Shown here: one piece after another, positions 2,073 to 45,683 of the stretch
Numbering within the stretch: position 1 is the first letter of the stretch
How the letters are laid out: every line of letters begins with the position of its first letter
NCBI GenBank assembly: GCA_017450205.1
Contig: JAFSVF010000015.1
Location: forward strand, 34,106-98,105
DNA from: Bacilli bacterium
Lineage (GTDB): Bacteria > Bacillota_I > Bacilli_A > RF39 > UBA660
Length of the DNA stretch: 64,000 bases
Direction: 5' to 3'
The notes under the pieces: model-generated
Seen by the model: the letters and a program-made list of their open reading frames with translations, nothing else
Databases searched by the model: none
What the model was told of the DNA's origin: nothing
Translations under genes and position numbers: made by a program

Positions 2073-2657
2073 CTATATATATTTCTTAGTTATCTTATTA
2101 GCAATTAAACTTAATACATAAGCACCAATAAATGCTACTATTATTTTTACAATTGCTATTGGATCATGAAACACATCTTTAACATTAGTACCCACAAATA
2201 CAATAAAATAAATCATACAAAATTTACCAATTATCATACTTGCTAAATACTTTTTAAAATTCATATTAGAAAGTCCAGAACCAATATTTATTACAAAAGA
2301 TGGTGTAAATGGACAAGCAATTATTAAAGATAATCCAGATAAACTAATCTTATTTAATCCCTTACTTAGCGATTTAACAATTTTATATTTAGGATGCTTA
2401 TCTAAATATAAAAATACTTTTTCTTTAAATACTTTTCTTGATAACATAAATACAAAAATACCACCAAGAATAGTTGCAACTGAACTTAATATAAAACCTA
2501 AAAGTGTTCCAAAAATAGTAATATTAACAATTACAAAAGCAATTAATGGTAATACTGGAAAAATAGCCTCAACAATAATTAAAAGAACACTAACAATTCC
2601 GCCAATTAGTCCAAGAGAATATATAAAATTAATAATATCATTAATTATCACTTCCAT
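2073..2657 (-). CDS. TVP38/TMEM64 (DedA/SNARE-associated) family membrane protein
   Basis: 194 aa, 5-6 hydrophobic helices, with family-like segments FPVLPLIAF and CPFTPSFVINIGSGLS. Confidence 0.65.
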   Translation of the reverse strand: MEVIINDIINFIYSLGLIGGIVSVLLIIVEAIFPVLPLIAFVIVNITIFGTLLGFILSSVATILGGIFVFMLSRKVFKEKVFLYLDKHPKYKIVKSLSKGLNKISLSGLSLIIACPFTPSFVINIGSGLSNMNFKKYLASMIIGKFCMIYFIVFVGTNVKDVFHDPIAIVKIIVAFIGAYVLSLIANKITKKYI

Positions 2658-2683
2658 ATTTCATCACTCTATAATTATAACAT

Positions 2684-2712
2684 AAAAAAGATGAAGAATT
2701 TTATTCTTCATC
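2684..2712 (-). terminator. Rho-independent terminator overlapping the end of the coupling-protein gene
   Basis: Stem gatgaagaa (2690-2698) pairs with ttcttcatc (2704-2712), 5-nt loop. The A-run 2684-2689 on plus gives a U-run on the RNA. Confidence 0.5.
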
Positions 2713-5181
2713 AAAGAAATCGTCAAAGAACTCATCATCAGAAACATAATTATAAGGGTTTTCCTTAGGTTTAACAGGTGTTTCTGCTGGTTTAGATTCA
2801 CTTACTGGTTTTACAGTAGTTGATTCTACTTTGTTCATTGAATCAATTGTCATTTGTTTAGTCGGATCAATTATACCAGTTAATGGTTTATTAATAATTG
2901 GTTCACTTGGGAACTCAGGAGCCTTAGTTGTTTCATCAATTGGATTAGTAACCATTGGTTTTGGTTCAGGTTCACTAGATCCAGAACTTGCACTAGCTAA
3001 AATATCACTAAATGAAGCAACGTTTGATGGAGGTAACTTCTTATCATCCGGTGTTTCTAAATCATCTTTTGGAACAGATGGTAAATCTTTAGCACCAGCA
3101 TTATCAATTGTTGGATTAAGTTTATTTGATTCTTTTGCACGATTTTCAGCTTCTTCTTCAGCCTCAAGTTCAGCAATTTTAGCATCAATCTTCTTCATTA
3201 ATTCTTCAATATTTATTCCTTGAGGTCTAGGAGGTTGTGGTCTTGCATCTCTTTGTCCTCTTAGCATATCTTCAAACGATGATGGACCTGATGATTGTGG
3301 TCTTGATTGAGGCATTCCTCCCATACCACCAGGTATTCCAGAAGACATTCCACCACCAGGGAAAGCGCCACCCATTAATTGAGCAAATGGATTACTTCCA
3401 CCCATTTGGCCAAGAGGCATTCCACCTGGACCTTTAGGACCCATCTTATTATTAATTTTAGATTTCATTCTTAAATTAACAAACTCTTTAATTTGGAAAA
3501 CTTGAATTGGTCTCTTTTCTCTTGTAAAGAATTCAGCCTCTTCGTATTTTTCATCACCCCAATCAATATTAAATGCTTGTTTAAATTTAGTTTTAAACGG
3601 ATGCATTCTTGATCTTAAAACGATAACTTCATTCATTTGTAATTTTTGTAAATCTGCAACAGTAATTAATGGATGAGATTCACTCTTATCATCCTTTTTA
3701 CTCTTAACTTCACCACATAATTTAGAAATTTCTTCTAGAGCTGAAAGTTCAGTTGTTAAAAGATAAATTAAGTTACCACAGTTTGAACGAATTGTTTCAG
3801 CATCATCTTTACCATATACATCATTTAATTGAGCAAAGTTTTGAATAATAAATGTAAATCTAATTTGTCTTGAACGTGCAGCAGTAACCATTGTTGTAAC
3901 GTCTTTAAGCGCAGGCATGTTAGCAAACTCATCTAGTAAGAAGTTTGTTCTGACTGGAAGTGGTCCACCATTTGCTTGAGCAACATCAATTAAAGTTTCA
4001 TAAGCTTGTTTAATAAAAATTGTAGCAAGTGCATGATATGTTGTTTTTTCATCATGAATTATGATAAATACTGCTGTAGGTTTCTTACCAATATCAGCCA
4101 TATCAAAGTCACTATAAGATAACATTTCTGATAAGTTTTCACGAGATGCGAATACACGAATCTTTTGACGGAATGTAGAAAGAATACCACCTTTAGTTTC
4201 AGTTGGAGAATTTATTGTATTTGAAGCAAATACGTAAGCAGAAGATTCTTCACCTTTCATATTAAAGTATTCTTTAATATAGTTAGAACCAGCTCCAAAT
4301 TTATCTTCACCAACAGTAGTCATTACATTAATTGAACTAATATTACATTCTTCTTCTTTTGCATCTTGCATTAAACCAAGAGCACAACCAGAGAAATAGT
4401 CTCCAGCACTATCTTGCCAGAATGGATCTTGGGCATCTTTATCTTTAACGATATTTTTACCAATATCATCTACTAATTCAATTGCTTTATCTACATTACC
4501 TTCTTTATATAATCTATAAGGTAAAGATAATGGATTCCATGAATTACCTTGTCCAGGTTCACGGAAATTTAAAACTACTATATCATAACCTCTAGCCTTT
4601 AAGTGATTAGTATGTCTTTTATATAATTCACCCTTAGGGTCAGTCATAATCATAGATTCTTTATGTTTCATTAAACTATATATTAATGGATCAATAACAG
4701 CAGATGTTTTACCTGAACCAGTAATACCAATTACTAGTGTATGGTTTTCACTATTATCTACCCACATATTTTTACCATCATTAATTAAAACTGCACCAGC
4801 AGCAGGAGCATCAGGATCTTTAACTCCAACTTCAACAATTTTAAAGCCTTTTTTCATTTCTTTTTCTTTTAACCATCTAGAATATCCTTTTGATTCTTTT
4901 TCACCAAAAGATAAACCAAAACCTGATTCGGACTCAAAGATTTTAGATTCTACAGAGGCAAAAATAAATATTTCAATACCAAAGAAAATCATTAAAGTAA
5001 ATAAAATATGTGATAATTCAAAACCTGATAAAAAGTTTATAGTTGCTCCTTCTTCATTTATTAAACTAAAAATATTAGCTACAGTTAATGAACTTAGAAA
5101 AAGCAATACAATACTAAAAGCTATAAATTTAGCAAAATCGGCACCTCTTACTCTGAATTTCACAATATCTCCTTCTTTCAT
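2701..5181 (-). CDS. Type IV secretion coupling protein (VirD4/TraG/TcpA-like ATPase) with a long disordered C-terminal tail
   Basis: 826 aa. N-terminal TM helices, Walker A VIGITGSGKTSAV, Walker B NFLLDEFANMP, then ~250 aa of low complexity. The ATG at 5181 has no SD. The GTG at 5163 is preceded by GAAGGAG and is an alternative start. Confidence 0.85.
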   Translation of the reverse strand: MKEGDIVKFRVRGADFAKFIAFSIVLLFLSSLTVANIFSLINEEGATINFLSGFELSHILFTLMIFFGIEIFIFASVESKIFESESGFGLSFGEKESKGYSRWLKEKEMKKGFKIVEVGVKDPDAPAAGAVLINDGKNMWVDNSENHTLVIGITGSGKTSAVIDPLIYSLMKHKESMIMTDPKGELYKRHTNHLKARGYDIVVLNFREPGQGNSWNPLSLPYRLYKEGNVDKAIELVDDIGKNIVKDKDAQDPFWQDSAGDYFSGCALGLMQDAKEEECNISSINVMTTVGEDKFGAGSNYIKEYFNMKGEESSAYVFASNTINSPTETKGGILSTFRQKIRVFASRENLSEMLSYSDFDMADIGKKPTAVFIIIHDEKTTYHALATIFIKQAYETLIDVAQANGGPLPVRTNFLLDEFANMPALKDVTTMVTAARSRQIRFTFIIQNFAQLNDVYGKDDAETIRSNCGNLIYLLTTELSALEEISKLCGEVKSKKDDKSESHPLITVADLQKLQMNEVIVLRSRMHPFKTKFKQAFNIDWGDEKYEEAEFFTREKRPIQVFQIKEFVNLRMKSKINNKMGPKGPGGMPLGQMGGSNPFAQLMGGAFPGGGMSSGIPGGMGGMPQSRPQSSGPSSFEDMLRGQRDARPQPPRPQGINIEELMKKIDAKIAELEAEEEAENRAKESNKLNPTIDNAGAKDLPSVPKDDLETPDDKKLPPSNVASFSDILASASSGSSEPEPKPMVTNPIDETTKAPEFPSEPIINKPLTGIIDPTKQMTIDSMNKVESTTVKPVSESKPAETPVKPKENPYNYVSDDEFFDDFFDEE

Positions 5182-5258
5182 GTCATAGTATAATATAAAT
5201 AATATAAATTATCTATAATTAAATACACTTTTGATGCAAACTTTCATTTGCATTCACT

Positions 5259-5289
5259 ACTATACACCTCCATTTAACTGGAGAGTCAA
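5259..5289 (-). promoter_or_regulatory. MerR-type promoter/operator upstream of the coupling-protein gene
   Basis: The minus strand reads TTGACT (5289-5284), a 19-nt spacer CTCCAGTTAAATGGAGGTG, then TATAGT (5264-5259). The spacer holds a 15/16 palindrome CTCCAGTT/AAATGGAG. It is nearly identical to the promoter at 45652-45682. Confidence 0.5.
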
Positions 5290-5300
5290 ATAATTTTTCT

Positions 5301-5840
5301 TTAATACATTTTAGAAGCTCTTAAAGCTTTTATTAAAAATATCAATACTACTATTACTAAAATAATAACAACTAAGGCAACAATCATATATGATATCAAT
5401 TTTTTTGTTTCCTTATTTTCATTATTTTCTTCTTGTTCTTCTTCATCATTATTAATAACAGTTGTTACAGTCGTAGTAGTTAGAGAAGTATCAAATACAC
5501 TAAATTTAACTACTACTAAATCTTTACTAGTTGTTTTAGAACAATCAATTCTATATCTTCCAACACTGTCAGCTACACCATTTACATCAACTGTTCCATA
5601 TATAAAATTAACTTCATCATCATTAGGAAAATCACTAACTCTTAATTTAAAATCGTTACTTTTATTTAAAGTATATTCTTCGAATCCAGATTCTGATGTA
5701 GATGAATCAAATACAACTGTTAAAGAAGTTATATTATCTTTAATACGAGAATCAATCATAGCACTCATACTAACAGTTTTAGCAAAAGTACAAGCAGGAA
5801 ATAAGAAAAATAAACTAATAAAAATAATAATCTTTTTCAT
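5301..5840 (-). CDS. Surface-exposed type I membrane protein of unknown function (last gene of the T4SS channel operon)
   Basis: 179 aa. Signal peptide (FPACTFA then K), Thr-rich and acidic stalk, C-terminal TM anchor with a basic tail. Confidence 0.45.
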   Translation of the reverse strand: MKKIIIFISLFFLFPACTFAKTVSMSAMIDSRIKDNITSLTVVFDSSTSESGFEEYTLNKSNDFKLRVSDFPNDDEVNFIYGTVDVNGVADSVGRYRIDCSKTTSKDLVVVKFSVFDTSLTTTTVTTVINNDEEEQEENNENKETKKLISYMIVALVVIILVIVVLIFLIKALRASKMY

Positions 5841-5852
5841 ATATTTTCCTTT

Positions 5853-7160
5853 CTAAATTCCTTTATAAGAATAAAATCTCATATATACGTTTTTACTAGA
5901 ATAACTACTTACGATTATACCAGTTTTCTTACTACTTGCATGTACCCAAGTATTATTTCCTAAATATATTGCAGTATGTCCTTCACCATTTGCTCTTCTA
6001 ACTCCAACATCTCCCGGAGTCATTGTATCAAAAGTTCTAGAATCGAACCAATTACCACTATTACTATAAATAGTAGCAGTCGTACCAAAACCTGGATTAG
6101 AACCTAAACCTGTCCAGTATGCCCAGTTAACAAAAGAAGAACAGTCAAGACCAGTTGCAGGAATACCAGATAAACCAGGTCCTGTTGCATGACTACCATA
6201 TGTATATGGTAATCCAACAGCAGATAAAGCAGTCAAAATTATAGTACGTCTTGTTTGAGATAATACATTCCATCCAGGAATATTACTTGTAATCTTATCA
6301 ATCTCTTCTTGTGTTAATCTATGTCCACTAAATATTGGTGTACCACCACCACCAGGATTGTCATTATCGTCATCATCTTCATCATCTGTAGTTTCCCACT
6401 CATAATTATAAGTGTTCTCATAAATTTGATTTGAAGATGTATCATTTTCATCACTAATTGATGAAGAAACAACAAGTAAAAGCATAACTACAAAAATAAG
6501 GAAAAAAGAAGAAAACATTGCACCTATAATAATTCTATTTCTTAGTTTTTTCCTTCCCTCATTTACTTGTTTTAATCCTTCAGAGGCATCTGATAAGTTT
6601 CCATTCTTTAAACCTGATAAAGCTTTTGTACCACCTTCAATTGCATCATCTACTCCAACCTTTTCAAGTTCATCAGCAACCTTTTTAACAGCATCTCCTG
6701 CTACTCCTGAATTTTCAACAGTATTACTTACAACACCAACAAGTTTTTGACCTACTCGTGATTTTTCAATATTATCAGCAGCTTCAAGACCTTTAGTTCC
6801 TCCAAAATAAGCACCAGCTACTCTACCAACATTATTTGTAAGTCTAGCAACAGAATCCTGTTTAACTTTTCCATCTTCTCCAATTTCCATACCAGGAGCA
6901 ATTTTATCCCCAGGTTTATATCCAGGAACTTCATTTCCATTTTCATCAACTTGTGGCTCACCAGCTACTTGTTGACCAACTTGTGGTTGACCATCAGTAA
7001 TACCTAACTTGTCACTAACACTATCAATTGCATTTACTCCTTGATTGATAGCTTCAAGTTTAGGATTTCCACCACCAGATGGAGTTATACCTCCAACTGG
7101 ATTATTTTGTTGAGGTAATGTACTATTACCTGTAACTTGTGGAGTCTCATTCATAATCAT
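5853..7160 (-). CDS. Membrane-anchored NlpC/P60 peptidoglycan hydrolase (T4SS-associated)
   Basis: 435 aa. ~210-aa Gly/Val/Gln-rich N-domain, one TM helix, C-terminal NlpC/P60 motifs (GLPYTYG, GLDCSSFVNWAY, GHTAIYLG, VHASS). Confidence 0.8.
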   Translation of the reverse strand: MIMNETPQVTGNSTLPQQNNPVGGITPSGGGNPKLEAINQGVNAIDSVSDKLGITDGQPQVGQQVAGEPQVDENGNEVPGYKPGDKIAPGMEIGEDGKVKQDSVARLTNNVGRVAGAYFGGTKGLEAADNIEKSRVGQKLVGVVSNTVENSGVAGDAVKKVADELEKVGVDDAIEGGTKALSGLKNGNLSDASEGLKQVNEGRKKLRNRIIIGAMFSSFFLIFVVMLLLVVSSSISDENDTSSNQIYENTYNYEWETTDDEDDDDNDNPGGGGTPIFSGHRLTQEEIDKITSNIPGWNVLSQTRRTIILTALSAVGLPYTYGSHATGPGLSGIPATGLDCSSFVNWAYWTGLGSNPGFGTTATIYSNSGNWFDSRTFDTMTPGDVGVRRANGEGHTAIYLGNNTWVHASSKKTGIIVSSYSSKNVYMRFYSYKGI

Positions 7161-7173
7161 TACCTCCCTTTCT

Positions 7174-7701
7174 TTAAATTTGTCCCATAAAAGTTATTCT
7201 ATAATCATTTATACCATTTGCTACTAATTTAAATTCTATTCCTTCATTAGTAAGAATAACTATTATATTTCTATCAACTTTATAAGATTCAACCGTACTT
7301 TTTAAAACTTTCGAAGATCTTAATTTAGTTAACATATTTATTGCATCTTCTCTAGAAGTATATTTATTCTTCATTTTATTATCCATTAAATCATATAATT
7401 TCCCAGGATCTTTATCCCACATTTCAACTAATTTTTTTAAATAGAATTCCGCTAAATCTTGATCACTTTTTTCTATAATTTTATATTCATTAGCTTCATA
7501 TGTTTTTATAATATCAGGTGCTTGATCTAATGGTCCATTTTCTAATTCCGTTGAATTAATTCTTGCATTTCTAATACTATTATAAATAATTAATGATAAA
7601 AAACCAAAAACTACAACAAAGAATACTAAAAACAAAAGTGCATTTTCTTTAAAAAACTCTTTTAATCCATTATTTTCCATTAGCCACCTCACTGTATTCA
7701 T
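7174..7701 (-). CDS. N-anchored small protein, unknown function (candidate VirB8/TcpC-like scaffold by position only)
   Basis: 175 aa in the track. The likely start is Met8 at 7680, preceded by GAGGTG. Single N-terminal TM helix, then a ~130-aa soluble domain. Confidence 0.4.
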   Translation of the reverse strand: MNTVRWLMENNGLKEFFKENALLFLVFFVVVFGFLSLIIYNSIRNARINSTELENGPLDQAPDIIKTYEANEYKIIEKSDQDLAEFYLKKLVEMWDKDPGKLYDLMDNKMKNKYTSREDAINMLTKLRSSKVLKSTVESYKVDRNIIVILTNEGIEFKLVANGINDYRITFMGQI

Positions 7702-8230
7702 TTTCTACGATTGGTCTAATACTAAAATGGAATGTATTTCCATCTAAAATAACTTTTAAATATTCATTTTTATAAAATTCACCTGTTAAAGAATTTATTA
7801 ATTTTCCATCAACATAAAATGTCATAATTCCTTTATTAGATTTTACATACATTTTATTTGGTTGGAAAGATAACAAACTATCACTAACATACAAATAATT
7901 TTTAATATTACTTGAATTAATATTATTTTTATTAACATATTCTTCATCCAATATTTTAATAGCCGAATCATAATCTTTCATATTAACAAATGAATAAAAT
8001 TTTTCAATCGCAGTTGAAACAGTAGAATATCTACTAAAATCATCAACAATTTTATAACTTGCTTCACTAGAAGAATTCTTATCAAAAAGCTTTCTTAATC
8101 CATTAGACATTGGAAAAAAGAAATTAACAATTATTATTAAACCAATAATTACTAATAATCCAATTCCCCAATATGTTAATACTTTTTTTTCTTGTTTTGT
8201 AATACCTAATTTACTAGCCATAAATATCAC
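7670..8230 (-). CDS. N-anchored small protein, unknown function (candidate VirB8/TcpC-like scaffold by position only)
   Basis: 186 aa. N-terminal TM helix (LLVIIGLIIIVNFFF), then a soluble domain. No motif recognised. Confidence 0.4.
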   Translation of the reverse strand: MIFMASKLGITKQEKKVLTYWGIGLLVIIGLIIIVNFFFPMSNGLRKLFDKNSSSEASYKIVDDFSRYSTVSTAIEKFYSFVNMKDYDSAIKILDEEYVNKNNINSSNIKNYLYVSDSLLSFQPNKMYVKSNKGIMTFYVDGKLINSLTGEFYKNEYLKVILDGNTFHFSIRPIVENEYSEVANGK

Positions 8231-10585
8231 CTATAATCCCCAAATATTATATCTCCATTTAGACATACTACTTATATTATATAAACCATATGCTTCTTGA
8301 TCCTCAGCATTTGTTTTCATACATGAAGAACCACTACAACCTCCACTATTAGCATTATTGCACGCTCCTTCAACAGAAGAAACTCTTGATGTATTTGAAT
8401 AATATTGTTTTATATATGGGAAATAATAACATCCACCACTACTAGAAGATCCTTTTTCCCAATAATCACCAATATATGCATAATGTCCAATAGTAAATAC
8501 TTCCAAAGCACTTTCATATTTCTTAACTATACCTAAATTAGATAAACCTACAATTCCAGTTTCTAAAGATGAATACCTAGAACAAGCTTTTAATCCACCT
8601 TTATTTGTACATCCAATTCCCCAATAATTTTTATTAGAAGAATCAGCATTATTAGGTGAAAAACCTTCTACAATTGCTCTTACTACTGTAAACTCAGGAT
8701 TTAAACCACTTGCTTTAGACTTATCATAAATAAGACCAGCTTGATCAGCAAAATAACCAAGTCTCTTAGAATTACATGTATTCTTATTACAATATCCAAC
8801 TAACCCTGATATAAATTCTTCTCTAGTTAAAGAAGTAGTTCTCATAGAGAAATCTCCACCAACAAATCCACTTGGTCTAGGATCAGTTCTTTTTAATATA
8901 GAAAGTGGATCGATAGCATTATCAACACTATTACCATCTTGTCTTATTTCAAAATGCAAAGCAGCAGTATTAGTTCTACCAGTTTTACCAACTTTACCAA
9001 TTAATTGACCTCTTTGAACAGTAGTACCAACAGTAACACTAGAATCAATCGAACTTAATAATCCATAAACTGTATAATTACCATCAGAATGACTCAAAAT
9101 AATCATATTTCCATATCCATCATTACAATCAGTATCACCGACAGTACAACTATCATAAGTTAAAACTACTTCACCTTTTTCAACAGCTATAACATTAGTA
9201 GTTCCTTCTGTACCTGCAATATCTATACCATAATGGAATTCTTTTTCATTAGTAACAGGATTTGTTCTATCACCATAATTACTAATTACATTAGTACTAG
9301 ATGGTGCACCATCAGCATAAGTTACACCATTTCTCTCTTCTGTAGTATCACTACCAATTGGCCAATAATAAGCCTTTCTATCTTGCATAGGATTTCCAGG
9401 AATTAACTCACTTGAAGGAGTATAATCACCATAAGAAATACCTATTCCTAAACTGTCTAATATTTCTAATATATTTTTTATAATTTTTAATCTATCTTCT
9501 TTAATATAATCCATATATTTAAGATATTCTTCATCACCTTTGGCTTCAAGTGAATTATCACATACTTGTGACTTTAAGCAATCAGTATTACTATAACTTA
9601 AAACATCTTGGAAAAAATATTGTAAGTTTGCTTTTCCATCAAAATATGCATTTTCTTTAAGAAAATCAAAATACATTTCATAACTTACTCTAGGATCTTC
9701 ATTATAAACATAACCTACATCTTCGTATTTACCAGTATCTTTCCAAGCCATACACTCATCATAATGTTCATCTTCATCTTCAAATCCTAAAAATAATACA
9801 CTAGTAAATATACCTAAGATTTCATCATGTTTCATTCTACTTACAAAGTATTTCCAAAATCCCATTTCATAATTTTGAATATCAGCACATATTTCAGAAC
9901 CAAATGGAACATCATAAATAGTAGCATCCCCTTCACACCATTTTTCAAACGAACCATCTTTTCTTGTTGTAGATTGAACTTCACCAGTTTTACCATAACA
10001 TGTAGTCGTGTAAGCAACAGCGTTTCTAATAAGAACCTTTAATGTATCTCTTTCTTCAGAATAATAGTCAGCAAAATCCTTAGTATAAGTTGGTTCTACT
10101 GTTTCATCAGAGCCATCAGAATTATCACTATTAAAGCCCCAAAATGGAGATGGCCAATTTTTATAAAAATCACTTGAATTATTGTTATTATTTTGAATAT
10201 ATGGAGAATTACCAGTTGTAGGTGTTGCAAATTGTCCAAAAAATACTGTCCATAAAATTACTTGATCATTGATATCTAAACCTTTATTTTGATATTTAGT
10301 TAATAACTTATAAAGTTTTTTATAGAAACTTTCTAATGTATCACTTAAAGTTTCAACACACTCATCTACTTTATCTTGTCCTTGTTCATTATAAGAATTC
10401 TTACAATATTCAGTCCAATTCTCTAAATTAGCTTCTTTTAACTTTTCAAAATCAAAAGTTGAATAATCTTTTGTAGCAGCATATACAGGTTCAGTATACA
10501 TATTAATTACTATAACTGAAAAAAGTGCTATTACTAAAACCCCTTTTAATAATAGCATTAAACTTTCTTTAGTTACTTTTTTCAT
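8231..10585 (-). CDS. Secreted bifunctional cell-wall hydrolase: M23 peptidase plus glucosaminidase/lysozyme-like C-domain
   Basis: 784 aa. N-terminal signal/TM. M23 motifs HYGIDIAG, GYGNMIILSH, TGRTNTAALHFEIR. C-terminal segment GLNPEFTVVRAIVEGFSP...NYWGIGC. Confidence 0.8.
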   Translation of the reverse strand: MKKVTKESLMLLLKGVLVIALFSVIVINMYTEPVYAATKDYSTFDFEKLKEANLENWTEYCKNSYNEQGQDKVDECVETLSDTLESFYKKLYKLLTKYQNKGLDINDQVILWTVFFGQFATPTTGNSPYIQNNNNNSSDFYKNWPSPFWGFNSDNSDGSDETVEPTYTKDFADYYSEERDTLKVLIRNAVAYTTTCYGKTGEVQSTTRKDGSFEKWCEGDATIYDVPFGSEICADIQNYEMGFWKYFVSRMKHDEILGIFTSVLFLGFEDEDEHYDECMAWKDTGKYEDVGYVYNEDPRVSYEMYFDFLKENAYFDGKANLQYFFQDVLSYSNTDCLKSQVCDNSLEAKGDEEYLKYMDYIKEDRLKIIKNILEILDSLGIGISYGDYTPSSELIPGNPMQDRKAYYWPIGSDTTEERNGVTYADGAPSSTNVISNYGDRTNPVTNEKEFHYGIDIAGTEGTTNVIAVEKGEVVLTYDSCTVGDTDCNDGYGNMIILSHSDGNYTVYGLLSSIDSSVTVGTTVQRGQLIGKVGKTGRTNTAALHFEIRQDGNSVDNAIDPLSILKRTDPRPSGFVGGDFSMRTTSLTREEFISGLVGYCNKNTCNSKRLGYFADQAGLIYDKSKASGLNPEFTVVRAIVEGFSPNNADSSNKNYWGIGCTNKGGLKACSRYSSLETGIVGLSNLGIVKKYESALEVFTIGHYAYIGDYWEKGSSSSGGCYYFPYIKQYYSNTSRVSSVEGACNNANSGGCSGSSCMKTNAEDQEAYGLYNISSMSKWRYNIWGL

Positions 10586-10602
10586 AATATCACCGCCTAA
10601 TC

Positions 10603-12396
10603 TTATAGGCCGCCGCCTCCACCAAATGAATCTAATTCATCTTGTGTTAACACAACGTCTATTATCATTCTTCTCGAACCACATACAAATAATCCTCTAC
10701 CTTGTGGATAAGTTTTAATACTTTCCTTTTCAGCATCATTTAAATCTATTAACTTAGATAAATCTTCAACAGCTTGTTTCTTAAGACCCATAACTAAGTA
10801 GTAAGAAGCATTATCAAAGATTGCCTTACCTTGAGTAATTACTTGAGGGGAAGCAAAGTCTGTAGGTTGTTGAGTAATAATTATTGTACCAGTATTATAC
10901 TTTCTAGCACGTCTTTGCATTTGAGCTAAATACTCAGCACCTAGTTCATTATTACTTGATAATAATACATGAGCTTCATCAACATACATTATTGAATTAA
11001 CTCTTTTATCCAAACTTAATGACCATGCATATTTTAAAATATTAAAGAATAAAGCATTTCTTGTATTTGAATCACCATTCATTAAGTTTTTAATACTGAA
11101 AACTATAAATTTAGAATCAGAAGCTATTGTAGTATGACCATTAAAATAATAACGAGCTTCGTTAATAAATGGTCTAACTCTTAACTCTAATCTTTCCATA
11201 ACATCTCTTTCACGAGTTGCTTCTGGCATAGAAATAAGTTTTCCTTTAACAGTTGTATATACATCATCAAATGTTGGGAAGTTTTCAGTTTTAACTTTTG
11301 TAAAATCAGTATCATAATCTATACCAAATCTTTTATAAGTTTCTTGTAAAACTTCAGAAAACATTTGTAAAACATCATCTTCAATATCTGGAATATAATA
11401 TTTCATAAATGCTCTAACTGATTGAAGCGCAGAAGTAAGAATTGAAGTACCACTCTTAGAATCCATATCTCCTTCTTCAGTATCAGCAACAATTTCAAGT
11501 GGATTAATCATACCATATGATCCACCTTTTCCTAAATCAACAAATGAACCACCAAATGCTTTAGCCATTGATTCAAGTTCACCTTCAGGATCTATACAAA
11601 TAATTTGATAATTATTTCTAATGTGACCTCTTAATAACAACTTAGCAGTTGTTGATTTACCTGAACCAGATGTACCTAAAATTATAATATTAGCATTATT
11701 TCTATTTTGTTCTTTTTTAGTTTGATATAAAAATTGGTTAAATAATACTACACCACCTGAAGAATCCATTCCAAGTAAAGTACCCTTACCAGTATCTTTA
11801 ATAGAATCAAATACGAAAGGATACATTGCAGCCATTGTTGGCGCAGGAATTGGAACACCTATTCTTTCCTCTATATCTTGTTTAGGGAAAATAGGAATCA
11901 TTGATTTTAAAACCTTTTCTTGTTCAAACATTAAAGGAATTGCTCTCATTTGAAGAGAAATTAAATAATTTCTAATTTGTACTTTTCTATTATCTAATTC
12001 TTCTTGAGAATCAGCTACAATCATAATATGTAATTGAAAATCAAATACTTTAGATTGACTAGAAGCTAACATAGAAACGAAATTATCTAATGATTCATAA
12101 TCATTTCTTATTCTCTCTTTAAATGTTAAATCGTTTTCTTTTTGATACTCTTCTTTTAATTCAGCTACCTCTTTATTAATAGCTTTTTGCATTATTGCAA
12201 GTTCAATTGGAATATGTTTAACAACAACTTTAGCTCCAGGAATAGAAGATATATTACTTAAGTATCCTGGTCCTATAACTTGAGGAAACTCTACTACTGT
12301 ATAAATAGTTGCAAATTTATCACCTATGTTAAATTGAGTAGTTTTAAAATTTAATCCTTTAGGTGCTATTTCACTTTTTAATGTACTCTTTGCCAT
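10603..12396 (-). CDS. VirB4-like T4SS ATPase, central and C-terminal part
   Basis: 597 aa. Walker A GTSGSGKSTTAKLLL, DPEGE, Walker B MYVDEAHVLL. Resembles Gram-positive VirB4 (TcpF/PrgJ/Tn916 Orf16 type) lacking its N-domain. Confidence 0.85.
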   Translation of the reverse strand: MAKSTLKSEIAPKGLNFKTTQFNIGDKFATIYTVVEFPQVIGPGYLSNISSIPGAKVVVKHIPIELAIMQKAINKEVAELKEEYQKENDLTFKERIRNDYESLDNFVSMLASSQSKVFDFQLHIMIVADSQEELDNRKVQIRNYLISLQMRAIPLMFEQEKVLKSMIPIFPKQDIEERIGVPIPAPTMAAMYPFVFDSIKDTGKGTLLGMDSSGGVVLFNQFLYQTKKEQNRNNANIIILGTSGSGKSTTAKLLLRGHIRNNYQIICIDPEGELESMAKAFGGSFVDLGKGGSYGMINPLEIVADTEEGDMDSKSGTSILTSALQSVRAFMKYYIPDIEDDVLQMFSEVLQETYKRFGIDYDTDFTKVKTENFPTFDDVYTTVKGKLISMPEATRERDVMERLELRVRPFINEARYYFNGHTTIASDSKFIVFSIKNLMNGDSNTRNALFFNILKYAWSLSLDKRVNSIMYVDEAHVLLSSNNELGAEYLAQMQRRARKYNTGTIIITQQPTDFASPQVITQGKAIFDNASYYLVMGLKKQAVEDLSKLIDLNDAEKESIKTYPQGRGLFVCGSRRMIIDVVLTQDELDSFGGGGGL

Positions 12397-13037
12397 TAAC
12401 TCATCACCGTTCCAAACTCTGTTTTTATGCCATCATTGAAGAAACTATCAAGAATAACTCTTGCATCATCATCTGTAATTTGACGACTATTTAATTGAGC
12501 TTGTGCAAGCCCAGAAATCATATTTGCAACTCTTTTTTGTAATTGTTCAATATTTTTTGTAGGTCCTTTAATTAATATGAAGAATTCAGTATCAACAGAA
12601 TTATATGTAGGACCACTAAATTGTTCACATTTTCTTATATCTTGTTGTATTAACTTTCTAATTTGAGTATCGTTTGCTTCATTATACATGATTTCAAGTT
12701 CTGATTTAAATAAATTAATATCTACAGGTCTATCACAACAAATTAACCAAAACTCATCATGTAAAGTATTATAAAAATCCATTAAAGCATTGATTACATA
12801 AGCTTGATTTTGAGTATCAGTAATAAAAATATTTTTAGGTTCAATACGAACACCAGTTATATATTGTTCGCCACCCATTAAACCTTCACCTTTTACTTTA
12901 ATATACCCATTCTTAATATCAATTATAGGTAACCAATCTTCCGTATATTTAGCACTATTGTTCTTTGTCTTCGCCACGTAGCATACACCAACCTCTCCAT
13001 CTATATTTTCTTTGACTAGTAAAATATGTATAAACAT
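12396..13037 (-). CDS. VirB4 N-terminal domain encoded as a separate ORF
   Basis: TEDWLPIIDIKNGYIKVKG...YITGVRIEPKNIF resembles the N-domain of Gram-positive VirB4. Its TAA stop overlaps the ATG of 10603-12396 (TAATG). The start is uncertain: ATG 13037 has no SD and overlaps the upstream ORF by 83 nt, and GTG 12977 is possible. Confidence 0.55.
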   Translation of the reverse strand: MFIHILLVKENIDGEVGVCYVAKTKNNSAKYTEDWLPIIDIKNGYIKVKGEGLMGGEQYITGVRIEPKNIFITDTQNQAYVINALMDFYNTLHDEFWLICCDRPVDINLFKSELEIMYNEANDTQIRKLIQQDIRKCEQFSGPTYNSVDTEFFILIKGPTKNIEQLQKRVANMISGLAQAQLNSRQITDDDARVILDSFFNDGIKTEFGTVMS

Positions 13038-13275
13038 TTACTGTAAAAGTCCAAAAATTTCTATGATTTGGAACAGGAGACAACATTACTACAGAAATTA
13101 GTAGTGGTGCCAATCCAACCAAAACTTGAGCAGGAGTATCAGTCCCAAGAGCTGCAATCAAAATTGCAGTAAGTGATCCACCTATAACAAATATAATAAT
13201 ATCAACTGGTTTAAATAAACCAAATATCAACATAGATCTTTTTGTATTTGCCGGAATTAAATATCTATTATTCAT
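12955..13275 (-). CDS. PrgI/TcpE/VirB3-like small two-TM T4SS protein
   Basis: 106 aa. SD AGGAGA. Two TM helices followed by a basic tail (YFTSQRKYRW). Size, topology and position before VirB4 fit this role. Confidence 0.5.
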   Translation of the reverse strand: MNNRYLIPANTKRSMLIFGLFKPVDIIIFVIGGSLTAILIAALGTDTPAQVLVGLAPLLISVVMLSPVPNHRNFWTFTVNVYTYFTSQRKYRWRGWCMLRGEDKEQ

Positions 13276-13305
13276 AATTCCATCTCCTTTTTATTCTAAT
13301 ATACA

Positions 13306-15879
13306 TTACTTATCCTTTGGACCACTGCCAAGGTTATTAACACTTCTATTAGCAAAGTAACTAACTTTAGTACCTTCAAGACCACCTTTAATATTACTAA
13401 TGCTTTCTCCTACAGTCTTTTCAGCTTTTGAAAGACTATGAACGTATTTTGCAACTCCAAGTCTAAGTTTCTTTTGATCATCTTCACTTAGTGTCGCTAG
13501 TTTTGCATTATAAACATCACCAAATTTTCTATCTCCCATCAATTCTAAAATTTTATTATAATCATCACTCGCAGGATCAACACCATTATTTAAATCTTTC
13601 AATAAATCTCGAACCTCAGTAAATTCCCTTGATTCAAATGCAGTCTTTGAAGCACTTTTAATAGTTTCCTCTAATTGAGGATATGATCTAATAGTATCTG
13701 CGTATTGTGCATTTAAATTTCTATTAGAATTTGCTATATTCATAATATCTTCAACACCAGTTGTCTCAAATGATTTAGCTATAGCATTAATTTCTGCTTT
13801 ATTAACATAATCTTTACTAATTTTTTTAACATGTTCTTCAAGCTTTCTTTCAGCTTCTGCTCTATTAGTTACATGATCAATACCAATTTCTTGAGAAATA
13901 TCTCTACCTTTCCAAGAAGCACTATAACCAATTAAATTATTATGATCATCAAATACTTCTTTTAAGGAAGCAGCAGCATTTCTATCCCATACCGCAACAT
14001 CAGCTTTGGCAGCCTTACTTGCAGAATCACTTCTTTGTAAAATACCATTTGATGTAGTTTGATAACTAGTACCAGCAGCATAAAGAATAGAATCTTCAAC
14101 TCCAACAAGACTACCTTGCATAGCAGATGTAAATTCTCCTAATCTACCTTCTGTTAAATTGTTAAAGAATGCTCTCTTATCCTCTCTCCATTCATTAGCT
14201 CGAGTATCTCTAGTCATTTTATCATTAATTGCTCGTTCATTCGATTGTCTCATAGCTTGTGTTAACGAACCTTTACCAAGTCCTTTTTCAAAACCAGTTT
14301 TTGTACCAATTTGTAAACCTCTAGCACCTGCTAAGAAACTATCTAATCTTCCGCCACCTTTATTTTTAACAGCATTCATAGCAGACTTAGCACCAAGTAA
14401 ACCACCAGCAACCGCTCCAATTGGTTTAGTAACAGTACCAATTGCTTTTTTCTCAGCATCAACTGCATCTTTAACTTTAGTAAATGATCTCGTAGGATTT
14501 AAATCGATACCACTTAATAATCCACCAGCATTTTTTGCTAAATCCTTTAACATATCTGGAATTTCTTTTCCAGCTCTTAAAAGACCAATAACTAACGCAA
14601 AATAAGTAACTGCCTTTAACATAAAGTTATGAGATTCATCTTCAGCACTAACATTTTCAAAAATACCAAATAGTGCATCAAAAATTGAAGGCAATAGCTT
14701 AATCATTAAAGCAATAAATGCAATAACAAAAACTCTCACAAAAATATCAATGTATGTTTTTATATACTTTTCTCTCCAAGAAGTATATAATTTTTCATTT
14801 TTAGGAATAGTTCCTAATAGAATTGGAACAGGAGCAATCATTTGTAAAAATGCAAGTTTGAATGCCCTTACAGCAACATCTAAAGTATAAGCAACAATAA
14901 AGAATAAAATAACAATACCACCCAAAGGTGCAAAGAAATAATATTCCATATTATTTTCTTGATAAATCTCATCAATTAAAGTTAAATGAGAAGCAAGTTG
15001 ATGTGCTTTATTTCTATAACCTACTTTACTCTCGGAATAATTTGTTATAGAAGAAACCTCATTAGGTTTAACATCTTGTACTTTACCTTCAGGCAATCCT
15101 CCTTGATACAAATACCAATAATAATATTCACAAGTAGTTACACTATTATTCGCATCATGCATCCACTCAATTATGCCACCAATAACAGCACCTAAACCAG
15201 GATTTCCAAGCGCCATTCCAATAGCAAGTCCAACTCCCGCTCCAGTCAAAGTCCTTGCAATGGAATCTTGTGAAATATTTCCTCCCACATAATTCGCACA
15301 AGCATCAGATGATGACTTAAGTGAACCATCTGTATTATAAAAATCAGTAAATTCTGTTCCTATTGGGTGGAATACAGAAATATAAAGCATTGACGCCATT
15401 GTATTTCCACCTTCAATAACACTATCAGATTGACTAGCATTCTCACCCAGAACTATATTCCAAATTAAATTATCACTAACTAAAACATGATATTGAATTA
15501 AAGATAAATAATGGAAAACTAAAGGTGCAATAATAGTCAAAATTATACCTTTAACAACATTTGTAACAAGTTTTCTCGATTCTTTTACACCCTTATCCGG
15601 ATCTATAACAAAAAGAATTATTTGATAAGCAAGAATAAACATTATTATTATACCAATAACACTATAAATTCTCTTAGAAAAAGCTTGATAAACTTCCATA
15701 GCACCTTCAGTGCCACTTGTATATCCACCAAAAAGATCAAGTGTACCTAAAATTAAAAAAACTTTATATGCAAATCCGATAAGAGAATAAACTACATTAT
15801 CTATAACAAAAATAAAAAATCTATAAATTGAATCCCAAAAGAAATTTTGTATCCAATCTGTAATTGCTAGAAGAATCAT
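13306..15879 (-). CDS. VirB6/TcpH-like polytopic T4SS channel protein
   Basis: 857 aa. About 8 hydrophobic helices in the first ~450 aa, then a ~400-aa hydrophilic Gly/Ala/Lys-rich domain. First gene of the block. Called from topology and position, not from a motif. Confidence 0.55.
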   Translation of the reverse strand: MILLAITDWIQNFFWDSIYRFFIFVIDNVVYSLIGFAYKVFLILGTLDLFGGYTSGTEGAMEVYQAFSKRIYSVIGIIIMFILAYQIILFVIDPDKGVKESRKLVTNVVKGIILTIIAPLVFHYLSLIQYHVLVSDNLIWNIVLGENASQSDSVIEGGNTMASMLYISVFHPIGTEFTDFYNTDGSLKSSSDACANYVGGNISQDSIARTLTGAGVGLAIGMALGNPGLGAVIGGIIEWMHDANNSVTTCEYYYWYLYQGGLPEGKVQDVKPNEVSSITNYSESKVGYRNKAHQLASHLTLIDEIYQENNMEYYFFAPLGGIVILFFIVAYTLDVAVRAFKLAFLQMIAPVPILLGTIPKNEKLYTSWREKYIKTYIDIFVRVFVIAFIALMIKLLPSIFDALFGIFENVSAEDESHNFMLKAVTYFALVIGLLRAGKEIPDMLKDLAKNAGGLLSGIDLNPTRSFTKVKDAVDAEKKAIGTVTKPIGAVAGGLLGAKSAMNAVKNKGGGRLDSFLAGARGLQIGTKTGFEKGLGKGSLTQAMRQSNERAINDKMTRDTRANEWREDKRAFFNNLTEGRLGEFTSAMQGSLVGVEDSILYAAGTSYQTTSNGILQRSDSASKAAKADVAVWDRNAAASLKEVFDDHNNLIGYSASWKGRDISQEIGIDHVTNRAEAERKLEEHVKKISKDYVNKAEINAIAKSFETTGVEDIMNIANSNRNLNAQYADTIRSYPQLEETIKSASKTAFESREFTEVRDLLKDLNNGVDPASDDYNKILELMGDRKFGDVYNAKLATLSEDDQKKLRLGVAKYVHSLSKAEKTVGESISNIKGGLEGTKVSYFANRSVNNLGSGPKDK

Positions 15880-24066: not shown

Positions 24067-24123
24067 GGTATCACCTATAATAAAGTATAAATTAAAAACT
24101 AATATATTAAAAGATAAGTAAAT

Positions 24124-24150
24124 AAAAAACATCTCATAATATATGAGATG
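24124..24150 (-). terminator. Rho-independent terminator after the BI-1 family gene
   Basis: Hairpin catctcata/tatgagatg (24130-24150). The A-run 24124-24129 on plus gives a U-run on the RNA. Confidence 0.6.
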
Positions 24151-25177: not shown

Positions 25178-25909
25178 TTACATACTAATTAGCTTTTTAT
25201 TAACAAATTCATAAGCTTTTTCAGTACATTTACTTGGATTTTTATACATATAATATAATGTTTCAGCAAAGAATTCTTGTTCATCTCTAACACATGATGA
25301 ATTAGTAATTCTTGATTTAAATAAATCTACTTCTTCTTTATATATATTTTTAAAAGCAATTGAATTACTACTAAAATTATATGTATAATCAATAAAATGT
25401 CCAAACTCATGAATAGTAGATTCTCTAATACAAGATTCTTTAGCAGATATTAAAATAGTTTTATCTCTATAAATAGTTACTCCTTGCACACTAGAATACT
25501 GACCATTAAATACAGTCTTAGCAATATTTTCATTAGTTACATATATATGCCATCCTGAATTAACAAACTTATTTAATACATTACTAGGTAACTTATTTAA
25601 TTCTTTATTTAAAAGACTTAAATAATAACTATCTACATTTCCTTTTATTTCACCAATACCTGGTGTAATACTTTTCTTTGTTGTAGTAGTTGTTACAGTT
25701 GTAGTAGCTACACTTGTAGTTGTAGTTGTTTCACTTGTAATTATTTCACTAGTAGTTTTTCTAACTTCAACTGTAGTATCACTTAAATCTACATATGCAA
25801 GTAACTCTTCTTCTTTTATTTCAGGTTTCATAAAACTTAAAGAAGCAACAAATGCACTAATTATTAAAATCGAAAATATAGCCCTTCTTATTACAACTTT
25901 CATAACCAA
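25178..25909 (-). CDS. Membrane-anchored putative zinc metalloprotease (HExxH)
   Basis: 243 aa. N-terminal TM, Thr-rich linker (TTTTTSVATTTVTTTTTKK), C-terminal domain with HEFGH. Possibly the anthrax-LF-like (ATLF) family. Confidence 0.45.
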   Translation of the reverse strand: MVMKVVIRRAIFSILIISAFVASLSFMKPEIKEEELLAYVDLSDTTVEVRKTTSEIITSETTTTTSVATTTVTTTTTKKSITPGIGEIKGNVDSYYLSLLNKELNKLPSNVLNKFVNSGWHIYVTNENIAKTVFNGQYSSVQGVTIYRDKTILISAKESCIRESTIHEFGHFIDYTYNFSSNSIAFKNIYKEEVDLFKSRITNSSCVRDEQEFFAETLYYMYKNPSKCTEKAYEFVNKKLISM

Positions 25910-40421: not shown

Positions 40422-40501
40422 TATCGTCACCATATAAATTATACTATATATATTTATAGTTTGTAAACAAATTAAAAAACAAAAAAGAGCTATAACTCTT
40501 T

Positions 40502-41961: not shown

Positions 41962-41988
41962 AAAAGAATTATTTAAAATAATTCTTTT
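41962..41988 (-). terminator. Rho-independent terminator after pilin-like gene B
   Basis: Stem aaaagaatta (41962-41971) pairs with taattctttt (41979-41988). A long U-run follows on the RNA (A-run 41952-41961 on plus). Confidence 0.55.
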
Positions 41989-42958: not shown

Positions 42959-43316
42959 ATTTTTCTCCTTCATATTCTTTTTTTATCCATTCAACTAATA
43001 AATTAGTTATGAATACACATTCTTTATCTGTTAATTCTCTTCCCATAGGGATTCTATGCCATTTATTTAAACAAGACCTACAACAACAAGCACAAGCATG
43101 CATAGCAATAAATGAAGGATGACCTTTCATTGGAGTTTGTCTACCATCATTCTTAGGATATGCAGGTTTTAACTTTTGATACACAAAATCATTCGTATGT
43201 CTTATAACTGTATCTAATCCTTTATCATCAATATATTTAATCATGTATTTTCTTAAATGAAATGATGATCTAAATTTAGACTTAGATAACTTATTTAAAA
43301 TTTCACTATTATCCAT
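42948..43316 (-). CDS. DUF4186 family protein
   Basis: 122 aa. GHPSFIAMHACACCCRSCLNKWHRIP matches the characteristic Cys-rich core of DUF4186. Confidence 0.7.
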   Translation of the reverse strand: MDNSEILNKLSKSKFRSSFHLRKYMIKYIDDKGLDTVIRHTNDFVYQKLKPAYPKNDGRQTPMKGHPSFIAMHACACCCRSCLNKWHRIPMGRELTDKECVFITNLLVEWIKKEYEGEKYEK

Positions 43317-45152: not shown

Positions 45153-45187
45153 ATTACATCCTCCACCATACAAAAAAATTATAACAT

Positions 45188-45213
45188 AAAAAAAAGATTA
45201 CTTAGTAATCTTT
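45188..45213 (-). terminator. Rho-independent terminator after the MerR gene
   Basis: Stem aaagattac (45193-45201) pairs with gtaatcttt (45205-45213). A U-run follows on the RNA (A-run 45188-45192 on plus). Confidence 0.55.
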
Positions 45214-45630
45214 TTAATGATGAACTGGTGTATTATTTACTTTTCTTTTAACTTTAATACTTTTATTATCTAATGCATATTCATCAGATACTTCTTCGAT
45301 TCCTAAATTTTGTGATTGACTATCTAAAAAATCGAGAACTTCAACTTGTTGCATAACATCTTGAACATGTCTTAATAATTCACTCTTTTTATTTCTAATA
45401 ACACTAGTATTAAAATTTCCCCAGTTTTGACTAATTTCTTCTAATGAGAATGAACAACTCTTTAATGTTTTAATTAATTCTACATCATCTAATTGTTTAT
45501 CCGAGTAATATCTATATTTTGTAAATGGATCAACTTTAACTGGTTTTAATAAACCTATTTCATCATAATATCTAAGAGTTTTAACATTTAAACCACAAAA
45601 AGTAGCAAATTCTCCAATACTATATAACAT
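45214..45630 (-). CDS. MerR family transcriptional regulator (short, no obvious ligand domain)
   Basis: 138 aa. YSIGEFATFCGLNVKTLRYYDEIGLLKP winged-HTH followed by a coiled coil. Monocistronic, lying between its own promoter and terminator. Confidence 0.85.
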   Translation of the reverse strand: MLYSIGEFATFCGLNVKTLRYYDEIGLLKPVKVDPFTKYRYYSDKQLDDVELIKTLKSCSFSLEEISQNWGNFNTSVIRNKKSELLRHVQDVMQQVEVLDFLDSQSQNLGIEEVSDEYALDNKSIKVKRKVNNTPVHH

Positions 45631-45651
45631 AATTATCTCTCCTTTGCAGAT

Positions 45652-45682
45652 ATCATAACACTCCAGTTAACTGGAGAGTCAA
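45652..45682 (-). promoter_or_regulatory. MerR-type autoregulated promoter with a perfect 16-bp palindromic operator
   Basis: The minus strand reads TTGACT (45682-45677), a 19-nt spacer CTCCAGTTAACTGGAGTGT, then TATGAT (45657-45652). The palindrome CTCCAGTTAACTGGAG is at 45661-45676. Confidence 0.6.
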
Positions 45683-45683
45683 A

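Follow-up and report, generated by a model that had tools for sequence, protein, structure and literature searches.

We analysed a 64,000-nt stretch of the genome of a Bacilli bacterium (contig JAFSVF010000015.1, positions 34,106-98,105), hereafter called the window, with coordinates counted from its first letter. It carries a cluster of genes encoding a type IV secretion system (T4SS), including one for a VirD4-type type IV coupling protein (T4CP), and, 40 kb away, merR, a gene for a 138-aa regulator of the MerR family. Two closely similar promoters of the MerR type precede the T4CP gene and merR, and the 138-aa protein is a plausible activator of both. The features concerned are the following.

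2701..5163, minus strand: T4CP of the VirD4/TraG type, 820 aa; GTG start at 5163, Shine-Dalgarno sequence AAGGAG at 5174-5169, terminator at 2712-2690
5187..5215, minus strand: P2, the ordinary proximal promoter of the T4CP gene; -35-like TAGATA at 5215-5210, 17-nt spacer, -10 TATACT at 5192-5187
5234..5253, minus strand: inverted repeat ATGCAAA-N6-TTTGCAT, between P1 and P2 in their variable linker
5259..5289, minus strand: P1, the MerR-type promoter upstream of the T4CP gene; -35 TTGACT at 5289-5284, 19-nt spacer at 5283-5265, -10 TATAGT at 5264-5259
5268..5283, no strand: P1 operator dyad CTCCAGTTAAATGGAG, spacer positions 1-16, centre TT|AA at about -24/-23
45188..45213, minus strand: hairpin AAAGATTA-CTAAG-TAATCTTT with a T-run after merR, A+T-rich, read from the sequence
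45214..45630, minus strand: merR, 138 aa; PF13411 at 1e-15, winged helix-turn-helix (HTH), long alpha5 helix, disordered tail
45652..45682, minus strand: merR promoter; -35 TTGACT, perfect dyad CTCCAGTTAACTGGAG at 45676-45661, TGT, -10 TATGAT

Two MerR-type promoters

Read directly, the minus strand from 5289 to 5259 is TTGACT-CTCCAGTTAAATGGAG-GTG-TATAGT and that from 45682 to 45652 is TTGACT-CTCCAGTTAACTGGAG-TGT-TATGAT, the 19-nt spacer of the latter including the TGn of an extended -10. An earlier note on this DNA had described two TTGACT-19-nt-TATNNT promoters at these places, each with a 16-bp palindrome abutting the -35, and a 17-mer common to both (TTTGACTCTCCAGTTAA); all of this was confirmed, the promoters letter for letter. 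The dyad at 45661-45676 is a perfect palindrome, and the one at 5268-5283 carries one substitution relative to it (15/16; 14 of its 16 positions are self-complementary). Both dyads fill spacer positions 1-16 and are centred on TT|AA at about -24/-23; the operator core of both promoters is CAGTTAACTG, and the dyad is cited below as CTCCAGTTAAMTGGAG.

RNA polymerase with sigma-A uses 19-bp spacers inefficiently. The two hexamers are realigned when a MerR dimer sits on the spacer dyad, under-twisting the DNA and kinking it at the central A:T pairs near -24 (PMC7722741, PMC8113463, PMC1526738); in MerR itself a 7-4-7 dyad lies inside a 19-bp spacer (PMC1526738), and in BmrR the kink falls at the operator centre, -24, over A:T pairs (PMC7722741). 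Both window sites have the MerR-type geometry named in the note: the hexamers are separated by a spacer within the 19-20 bp range, and a dyad operator fills this spacer, centred near -24 on A:T pairs. They match the MerR/BmrR paradigm because TTGACT, a 19-nt spacer, TATNNT and a dyad centre at about -24/-23 on A:T coincide in each.

Further operators were sought in the 64 kb and its flanks. When up to three mismatches are allowed, the 22-mer has two sites in the window, P1 and the merR promoter, against 0.00 expected from 100 shuffles, and the 16-mer dyad has two matches against 0.05 expected; the pattern TTGAC[ATC]-N19-TANNNT matches five times, with a dyad-symmetric spacer in these two promoters only. 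In the DNA fetched from relatives, matches with up to three mismatches stand upstream of merR and T4CP orthologs, bar two three-mismatch matches (in loci L099 and L151) that have no TTGAC -35 hexamer. No further operator copies were found inside L158 or L076, two loci with divergent merR genes treated below.

The note had allowed for a dispersed repeat, and we rejected this, together with a chance match, on the shuffle expectation and the search of the relatives' DNA. Promoter-like hexamers are common in this A+T-rich genome (105 found vs 128 in shuffles), which would favour a coincidence or a repeat resembling a miniature inverted-repeat transposable element, with no regulatory meaning; but no match at all was expected, copies with a TTGAC -35 occur nowhere in the fetched DNA except at merR and T4CP orthologs, and the two copies are conserved in position while their flanks are unrelated, so that there is no shared repeat unit. 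The probability of this explanation is negligible.

The regulator

A six-frame search with the family hidden Markov model identified merR as the only gene of its family in the window, with no additional paralogs. Its product scores 57.7 bits with PF13411 (cut-off 21.6) and 46 bits with PF00376 (cut-off 28.2). The AlphaFold (AF2) model, with a predicted local distance difference test score (pLDDT) of 85, has the order beta1, alpha1-alpha2, wing, alpha3-alpha4, alpha5. The N-terminal part is a winged HTH of the MerR type with PDB matches to BmrR, EcmrR, MerR, MtaN and CueR, closest to BmrR (E = 1e-15, residues 2-69). Helix alpha5 (residues 75-104, 30 residues, pLDDT above 90) superposes in the model on MtaN and on the BmrR N-terminal domain and is predicted to be able to form the antiparallel coiled-coil dimer, whereas the tail (105-138) is Lys-rich, variable and disordered, with pLDDT below 65. 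Foldseek matches comprised the N-terminal domains of BmrR and EcmrR, MtaN (1r8d, TMt 0.82) and also HiNmlR, whose PDB entry calls it a 'MerR family regulator lacking the sensor domain'.

In alignments with 15 and with 25 homologs, the invariant columns cover the HTH and wing (VKTLRYYD...Y-RYY) and an FSLEE motif and include neither Cys nor His. All scores with the NCBIfam equivalogs CueR, ZntR, MerR, NmlR and SoxR are far below cut-off; with NmlR the score is 30.6 bits vs a cut-off of 175, and therefore the window protein is not an NmlR. The 138-aa protein is a bona fide MerR-family member of the minimal, sensor-less kind. In this respect the note went too far when it called the switch effector-responsive: the protein has neither a C-terminal ligand domain nor conserved sensing Cys or His residues. 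MerR relatives in IMG/VR are only 35-40% identical and uninformative.

Behind its MerR-type promoter, merR appears to be monocistronic, because the A+T-rich hairpin and T-run follow it and the next gene carries its own TGTTATAAT promoter. The hairpin is too A+T-rich for our terminator scanner, which demands at least 3 G-C pairs.

Conservation of the merR promoter

The operator was compared in six orthologous merR loci (identity to the window MerR in brackets):

L150 (88%): operator as in the window
L151 (66%): operator as in the window
L152 (72%): TTGACC-CTCCTATTAACTGGAG-TGT-TATTAT
L153 (72%): TTGACC-CTCCAGTTAACTGGAA-TGT-TATTAT
L158 (53%): TTGACT-CTCCAGCTAACTGTAA-TGT-TATACT
L076 (37%): TTGACT-TGGCAGTCAACTGCTC-TGT-TAATAT

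All six spacers are 19 nt long, and the surrounding intergenic DNA has diverged. The footprint TTGAC..C..AACTG..TGTTA is invariant in 7 lineages, again between diverging flanks; the promoter is conserved in orthologs down to 66% protein identity and recognisable down to 37%. With the sole MerR gene of the window behind it and conservation of this kind, the copy at 45.6 kb is merR's own promoter, as had been claimed, and predicted autoregulation through a 19-bp-spacer promoter is a family trait of these MerR proteins.

The gene order at 43710-46670 is amidoligase_2, merR, a gene for an FAD-dependent protein (PF21688), a 132-aa open reading frame (ORF) and DUF4186. This order is kept in orthologous loci down to 66% MerR identity (L151), and in all of them the merR promoter adjoins the amidoligase stop codon.

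The T4CP gene and its promoters

The protein encoded at 2701-5163 has the ATPase domain of type IV coupling proteins (PF02534, 1.3e-56; also PF10412 and PF12696), the Walker A motif GITGSGKTS and, as N-terminal membrane anchor, two hydrophobic segments. We place its start at GTG 5163 and not at ATG-5181, since the 820-aa product is on record on 14 contigs and the longer version is not; the leader from P1 is therefore about 89 nt. P1 lies directly after the stop codon of the upstream 179-aa gene (5301-5840), correctly placed and oriented for the VirD4-like gene, as the note had it.

We compared the upstream regions in 80 metagenomic loci with T4CP orthologs (48-81% identity) and in four more obtained by exact-protein look-up. 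TTGAC-19 nt-TATNNT occurs directly after the stop of the upstream gene in five lineages (T4CP 69-100% identical), the window included; the other four are:

L154/L070 (T4CP 92%): TTGACT-TTCCAGTTAACTGGAG-ATG-TATATT
L155 (T4CP 87%): TTGACT-ATTCAGTTAACTAGAG-GGT-TATAAT
L156/L072 (T4CP 81%): TTGACA-TTACATCTAGGTGGAATGT-TATATT
L071 (T4CP 69%): TTGACA-CTCCACTAAACAGTAATGT-TATTAT

Both hexamers and the exact 19-nt spacing are kept in all five, while the downstream linker to P2 is full of indels; the operator is close to consensus in the window, L154 and L155. P2 is more widespread. In an alignment of ten lineages (A3; T4CP 56-100% identity) its TATAGA and TTATAMT are invariant and at a fixed spacing, with the general form TATAGA(A/T)A...TTATAMT, that is TAGAWA-17-TATAMT, 20-45 nt upstream of the start codon, and it is the sole promoter-like element in relatives without P1. 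L155 has lost P2; its sole T4CP promoter is P1, which there has a consensus TATAAT and lies 25 nt upstream of the ATG. From this distribution, P2 is the presumptive ancient T4CP promoter and the MerR-type P1 an addition in one clade.

The -35 region of P2, TATAGA(A/T)A (window 5210-5217), is invariant in the ten lineages, which is tighter than usual for a -35, and it does not resemble TTGACA; an alternative sigma or some other factor could bind there.

Several observations weigh against control of the T4CP gene through P1. P2, invariant as it is, could be sufficient for T4CP expression, and the gene is not separated by a terminator from the upstream operon. Agreement of the P1 operator with the consensus falls to 9/16 positions in L156/L072 and to 11/16 in L071, where P1 control may be decaying or retargeted, and P1 is absent from L157 (T4CP 72%) and from every more distant ortholog among the fetched loci. 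The modelled regulator has no recognisable sensor, and the count of two operators applies to the 64 kb plus flanks searched. The earlier picture of a T4CP gene uncoupled from the channel operon and placed under the switch alone had to be given up: P2 intervenes, and no terminator was found between the 179-aa gene and the T4CP gene.

These points raise the alternative that P1 is a relic of an ancestral merR-T4CP cassette, of the type seen in the L158 locus, and that the T4CP is expressed from P2 and by read-through. P2 is the sole promoter in most relatives, the operator is degenerate in L156/L072 and L071, and the cassette is present in a sister cluster, all as expected of a relic. A relic would hardly preserve both hexamers and the exact 19-nt spacing in five lineages beside an indel-riddled linker, nor would the window operator stay 15/16 identical to the merR copy between unrelated flanks; and it was P2 that L155 lost, keeping a P1 with a perfect -10. 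We regard the relic as unlikely.

The leader from P1 was scrutinised for further elements. The second palindrome that the note had placed in a 5' untranslated region of ~80 nt is present at 5253-5234, but it is not conserved in sequence, and the leader measures about 89 nt and contains P2. L154 has a different inverted repeat, AAACAT-N4-ATGTTT, in place of ATGCAAA-N6-TTTGCAT, and none was found there in L156, L071 and L155. A role of the repeat at 5234-5253 as terminator was rejected, as no T-run follows. The fold of the leader is not better than that of shuffles (z = -1.1), and no Rfam match was found in the T4CP leader or elsewhere in the window. A 14-codon ORF, MQMKVCIKSVFNYR, spans 5209-5253, with its ATG at 5253 exactly at the predicted P1 start, and would be leaderless; we dropped it as a gene, since it is not conserved in L154 and is probably fortuitous.

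The C-terminal third of the T4CP (2701-3450) is a tail of ~250 aa rich in Pro, Gly and Ser and of varying length. It ends in a conserved acidic-aromatic motif, ...DDEFFDDFFDEE, in which D810, F816 and F817 are invariant (alignment A1) and which may be a docking motif. On one metagenome contig (L065, 10678-13189) the T4CP is split into ORFs of 304 and 519 aa, either a disrupted coupling protein in that strain or an assembly error.

A sister cluster with merR and a T4CP-like gene in cis

The strongest support for a link between MerR and the T4CP comes from a sister cluster in which the two are linked in cis. A MerR homolog with 53% identity (P0142, on 14 contigs) is encoded at three loci, L158-L160, where TTGACT-CTCCAGCTAACTGTAATGT-TATACT drives merR, followed after 15 nt by a gene for a 332-aa T4CP-like ATPase. 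The latter is short and soluble, without a membrane anchor, and 32% identical to the window T4CP. Onward in L158 come a VirB6-like protein (TrbL_4), a 101-aa ORF, a TraC-like protein, VirB4 (63% identical to that of the window) and M23, in an order that matches the T4SS cluster of the window. Near T4CP orthologs the only MerR found is that of L076, 9 kb downstream of the T4CP gene and with its own variant operator. Regulator and operator type thus appear to be tied to a T4CP gene in both places, over a distance of 40 kb and in trans in the window, but in cis in the sister cluster. The sister T4SS (L158, 9950-20384; also L159 and L160) stands after tilS-ftsH and a KilA-N gene and is visible up to the M23 gene.

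Classical MerR proteins repress when unliganded, and the CueR repressor form (4wls) is among the structural matches; the 138-aa protein has no sensor domain with which to switch to an activator form, and P1 sits directly after the upstream stop codon, in the path of read-through. MerR might accordingly bind both sites and act at the T4CP gene mainly as a repressor or roadblock, damping read-through or holding P1 shut in the manner of apo-MerR. MtaN, a constitutive activator, speaks against this, for although sensor-less it takes up the form that distorts DNA and activates (1r8d, which among small structures matches best). Moreover, repression alone does not call for good -35 and -10 hexamers 19 nt apart, yet these are conserved, and in L155 and L158 the MerR-type promoter is the sole one for the downstream genes. 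Repression as the main effect seems to us quite unlikely.

The same operator in Cyanobacteria

An exact scan for the 22-mer TTGACTCTCCAGTTAAMTGGAG in one genome per GTDB species returned 45 loci in 45 genomes, all of them cyanobacterial (Nostoc, Calothrix, Anabaena and others, several on plasmids), and no exact copy was found in IMG/VR. The 22-mer precedes genes for Cys-bearing 137-aa MerR proteins, HMA-domain P1B-ATPases, 65-aa HMA chaperones and DUF305 proteins, and also stands upstream of a gene for a conserved protein of 101-136 aa; a TAnnnT hexamer follows at 20-nt spacing in 27/46 sites. This looks like a coherent metal-responsive MerR regulon. The cyanobacterial MerR has a recognition helix similar to that of the window protein (KT[LI]RYY[DE]E[LI]GLL), although the two are 28% identical overall.

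The cyanobacterial regulons show that the 22-mer is a working MerR operator-promoter type, with no bearing on metals in the window organism. Likeness to the regulons of ZntR, CueR and the cyanobacterial metal regulators lies in the identical 22-mer and the similar recognition helix, whereas the cyanobacterial MerR proteins carry metal-binding Cys motifs and the window MerR falls far below the CueR, ZntR and MerR equivalog cut-offs. What is shared is one operator sequence between MerR subfamilies that are 28% identical, in Cyanobacteria and in Bacilli.

Such sharing also means that another MerR-family protein, encoded outside the window, could recognise one or both operators: recognition helices are alike across subfamilies, a 28%-identical protein uses the identical operator, and the DNA we saw is 64 kb of the genome. 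We hold this to be very improbable, given that the operator is found in the own promoter of the 138-aa protein in every ortholog examined, that a homolog is linked in cis to a T4CP-like gene behind the same operator type, and that the 138-aa protein is the sole MerR in the window.

Proposed mechanism

The best overall explanation, which we consider reasonably probable, is that the 138-aa MerR activates its own promoter and P1 of the T4CP gene. The MerR-type regulon itself is real and probably functional, with a new class of target, while we infer binding, activation and the direction of the effect from sequence comparison in uncultured organisms. MerR control of the T4CP gene, as put forward in the note, is supported by conservation of the merR operator, by the 19-nt spacing in five lineages and by the sister-cluster operon; as an exclusive switch it does not hold.

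According to this explanation, a MerR homodimer would bind the CTCCAGTTAAMTGGAG dyad within the 19-bp spacers of two sigma-A promoters and, in the manner of BmrR, MtaN and CueR, would distort the DNA at its central TT|AA, kinking and under-twisting it so that the -35 and -10 can be used. The first target would be its own monocistronic gene, resulting in positive autoregulation, and the second P1, about 89 nt upstream of the chromosomal T4CP gene. P2, with possible read-through from the channel genes, would provide a basal supply, with P1 acting on top; MerR would therefore boost T4CP supply and not solely determine it. For a protein without a sensor, the most likely determinant of output is its own concentration, through feedback, or else a partner or modification.

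A more far-reaching version, which we offer tentatively and think rather doubtful, is that the sensor-less MerR forms a positive-feedback, possibly bistable switch with the T4CP of a relaxase-less core T4SS, belonging to a widespread lineage of these Bacilli, as its sole other output. The channel would be made from an ordinary promoter, secretion or DNA transfer would be licensed cell by cell through the dose of T4CP, and the pairing of MerR and T4CP would be ancestral, whether in cis or in trans.

Were activation by MerR to be borne out, a chromosomal spacer-distortion promoter aimed at the gene of the coupling ATPase would bring new regulatory input to the substrate-selecting step of a T4SS. 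The host group consists of abundant uncultured gut and rumen Bacilli, in which the T4SS may serve to deliver proteins, to take up DNA or to transfer it. A simple handle is provided by the 138-aa protein and its two short operators, testable in vitro or in B. subtilis with no need to culture the organism.

Relation to known systems

The nearest solved HTH is that of BmrR, the multidrug-responsive regulator of Pbmr in Bacillus subtilis (Foldseek top matches, 33-38% identity). The outer half-site, GAC-CTCC, presumably resembles that of the bmr operator. Pbmr and the window promoters have in common the sigma-A promoter, the 19-bp spacer and a dyad centred about -24 on A:T (PMC7722741). Unlike BmrR, the 138-aa MerR is devoid of a GyrI-like ligand-binding domain, its predicted target is not an efflux pump but the coupling ATPase of a T4SS, and its apparently monocistronic gene is 40 kb from the second target.

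MtaN, the N-terminal module of B. subtilis Mta, has the same minimal winged HTH plus alpha5 (TMt 0.82, rmsd 1.8 A, 103 columns). Although they lack a sensor, the MerR proteins MtaN and HiNmlR both still distort a promoter with a 19-bp spacer; MtaN, however, is an artificial truncation. NmlR-type proteins make use of a conserved Cys, whereas the family of the window MerR has none. TipAL likewise activates its own 19-bp-spacer promoter, ptipA, and the N-terminal domain of TipA is a structural match (2vz4); TipA, however, senses thiopeptides through a C-terminal domain that is absent from the window MerR.

Control of T4SS and conjugation in Gram-positive bacteria is known mostly from repressors encoded on plasmids or integrative and conjugative elements (ICEs) and from peptide signalling. 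The MerR-like DNA-binding proteins TraN of pIP501 and TraR and Tra20 of pNP40 are tied to T4SS expression (PMC6158623; PMC8194271). They differ from the case described here in being encoded by the elements themselves and acting at the main promoter of the operon or in the oriT region, with TraN a repressor and Tra20 similar to it, and in the papers found they are not said to activate a 19-bp-spacer promoter that serves a T4CP gene alone. A search of the literature library found no paper that joins a MerR 19-bp-spacer promoter with control of conjugation or of a T4CP, and nothing on T4SS in RF39-like Bacilli. What is new is the class of target, a T4CP gene; the promoter and the type of protein are those known from the MerR family.

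The T4SS cluster and its genomic setting

The T4SS cluster as a whole occupies 13 kb (2701-15879). Besides the T4CP gene it consists of the following part:

5301..15879, minus strand: rest of the T4SS cluster, with its own promoter TTGATT-17-TATAAT at 15944-15916

Its products are an 857-aa VirB6-like/MMCAP2_0566-like protein of the membrane that weakly resembles a Mycoplasma conjugal-transfer family, the product of a 106-aa ORF, a TraC-like protein, a VirB4-like ATPase, an M23 hydrolase, two small ORFs, an NlpC/P60 hydrolase and the 179-aa membrane protein, with the VirD4-type T4CP at the end. Core genes flank the cluster, tmk, tdk, rplT and infC upstream and dedA, rmuC and ftsEX downstream; the synteny T4CP-dedA-rmuC(-ftsE) is kept in at least 26/84 relatives' loci, with T4CP identity down to about 50%. 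Metagenomic stretches that encode T4SS relatives number more than 500.

Among the window ORFs scanned, a set from which the 647-aa ORF at 22189-24132 was left out, there was no gene for a relaxase or integrase and no replicon gene. A plasmid or ICE origin was rejected: megablast of 2600-7200 against plasmids gave no match, neither relaxase nor integrase was detected in the ORFs scanned, and in place of the variable insertion context of an ICE or conjugative plasmid the cluster has conserved core genes at its sides. Tblastn of MerR against 72,556 plasmids yielded no close homolog (all below 50% identity), and that of the L158 T4CP-like protein yielded distant matches only. Judged by gene content and context, the T4SS is a core-chromosomal cluster, neither plasmid nor typical ICE, and its inheritance in these uncultured Bacilli of gut and rumen appears to be vertical.

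Among described systems the T4SS comes close to the conjugation machinery of the Mycoplasma ICE (MICE), to which NCBIfam matches point (Mbov_0397 VirB4, MMCAP2_0566 and Mbov_0396, all below the curated cut-offs) and with which the window shares a minimal gene set of the Gram-positive type. Unlike MICE, the window T4SS includes M23 and NlpC/P60 hydrolases and stands in core synteny, and no DDE recombinase, relaxase or integrase was found with it.

The window has 23-31% G+C, with nearly all genes on the minus strand, and no tRNA gene was found in it. It is part of the core chromosome, with the genes ftsZ, ftsA, murT, rpsP, htpG, infC, rplT, tdk, tmk, cmk, one for phosphoglycerate mutase and dinB-like genes. 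The closest named relatives are metagenome-assembled genomes labelled 'Bacilli bacterium' and 'Erysipelotrichales bacterium', and the metagenome-set labels of contigs with exact window proteins suggest an origin in ruminant gut studies.

Some other genes of the window deserve mention. A 243-aa protein (25178-25909), encoded between core genes and mgtE, matches PF07737, the family of the anthrax lethal factor N/C-terminal domain (E = 1.3e-10). A gene set for surface and DNA handling lies around the T4SS (22189-24132, 39468-40433 and 41987-42973; also L056 20158-22463). It includes several large proteins that bear N-terminal methylation motifs like those of type IV pilins, one of them, of 647 aa, with repeats that look leucine-rich by eye, together with a sortase, a protein with a SpaA domain and a non-specific endonuclease that is secreted.

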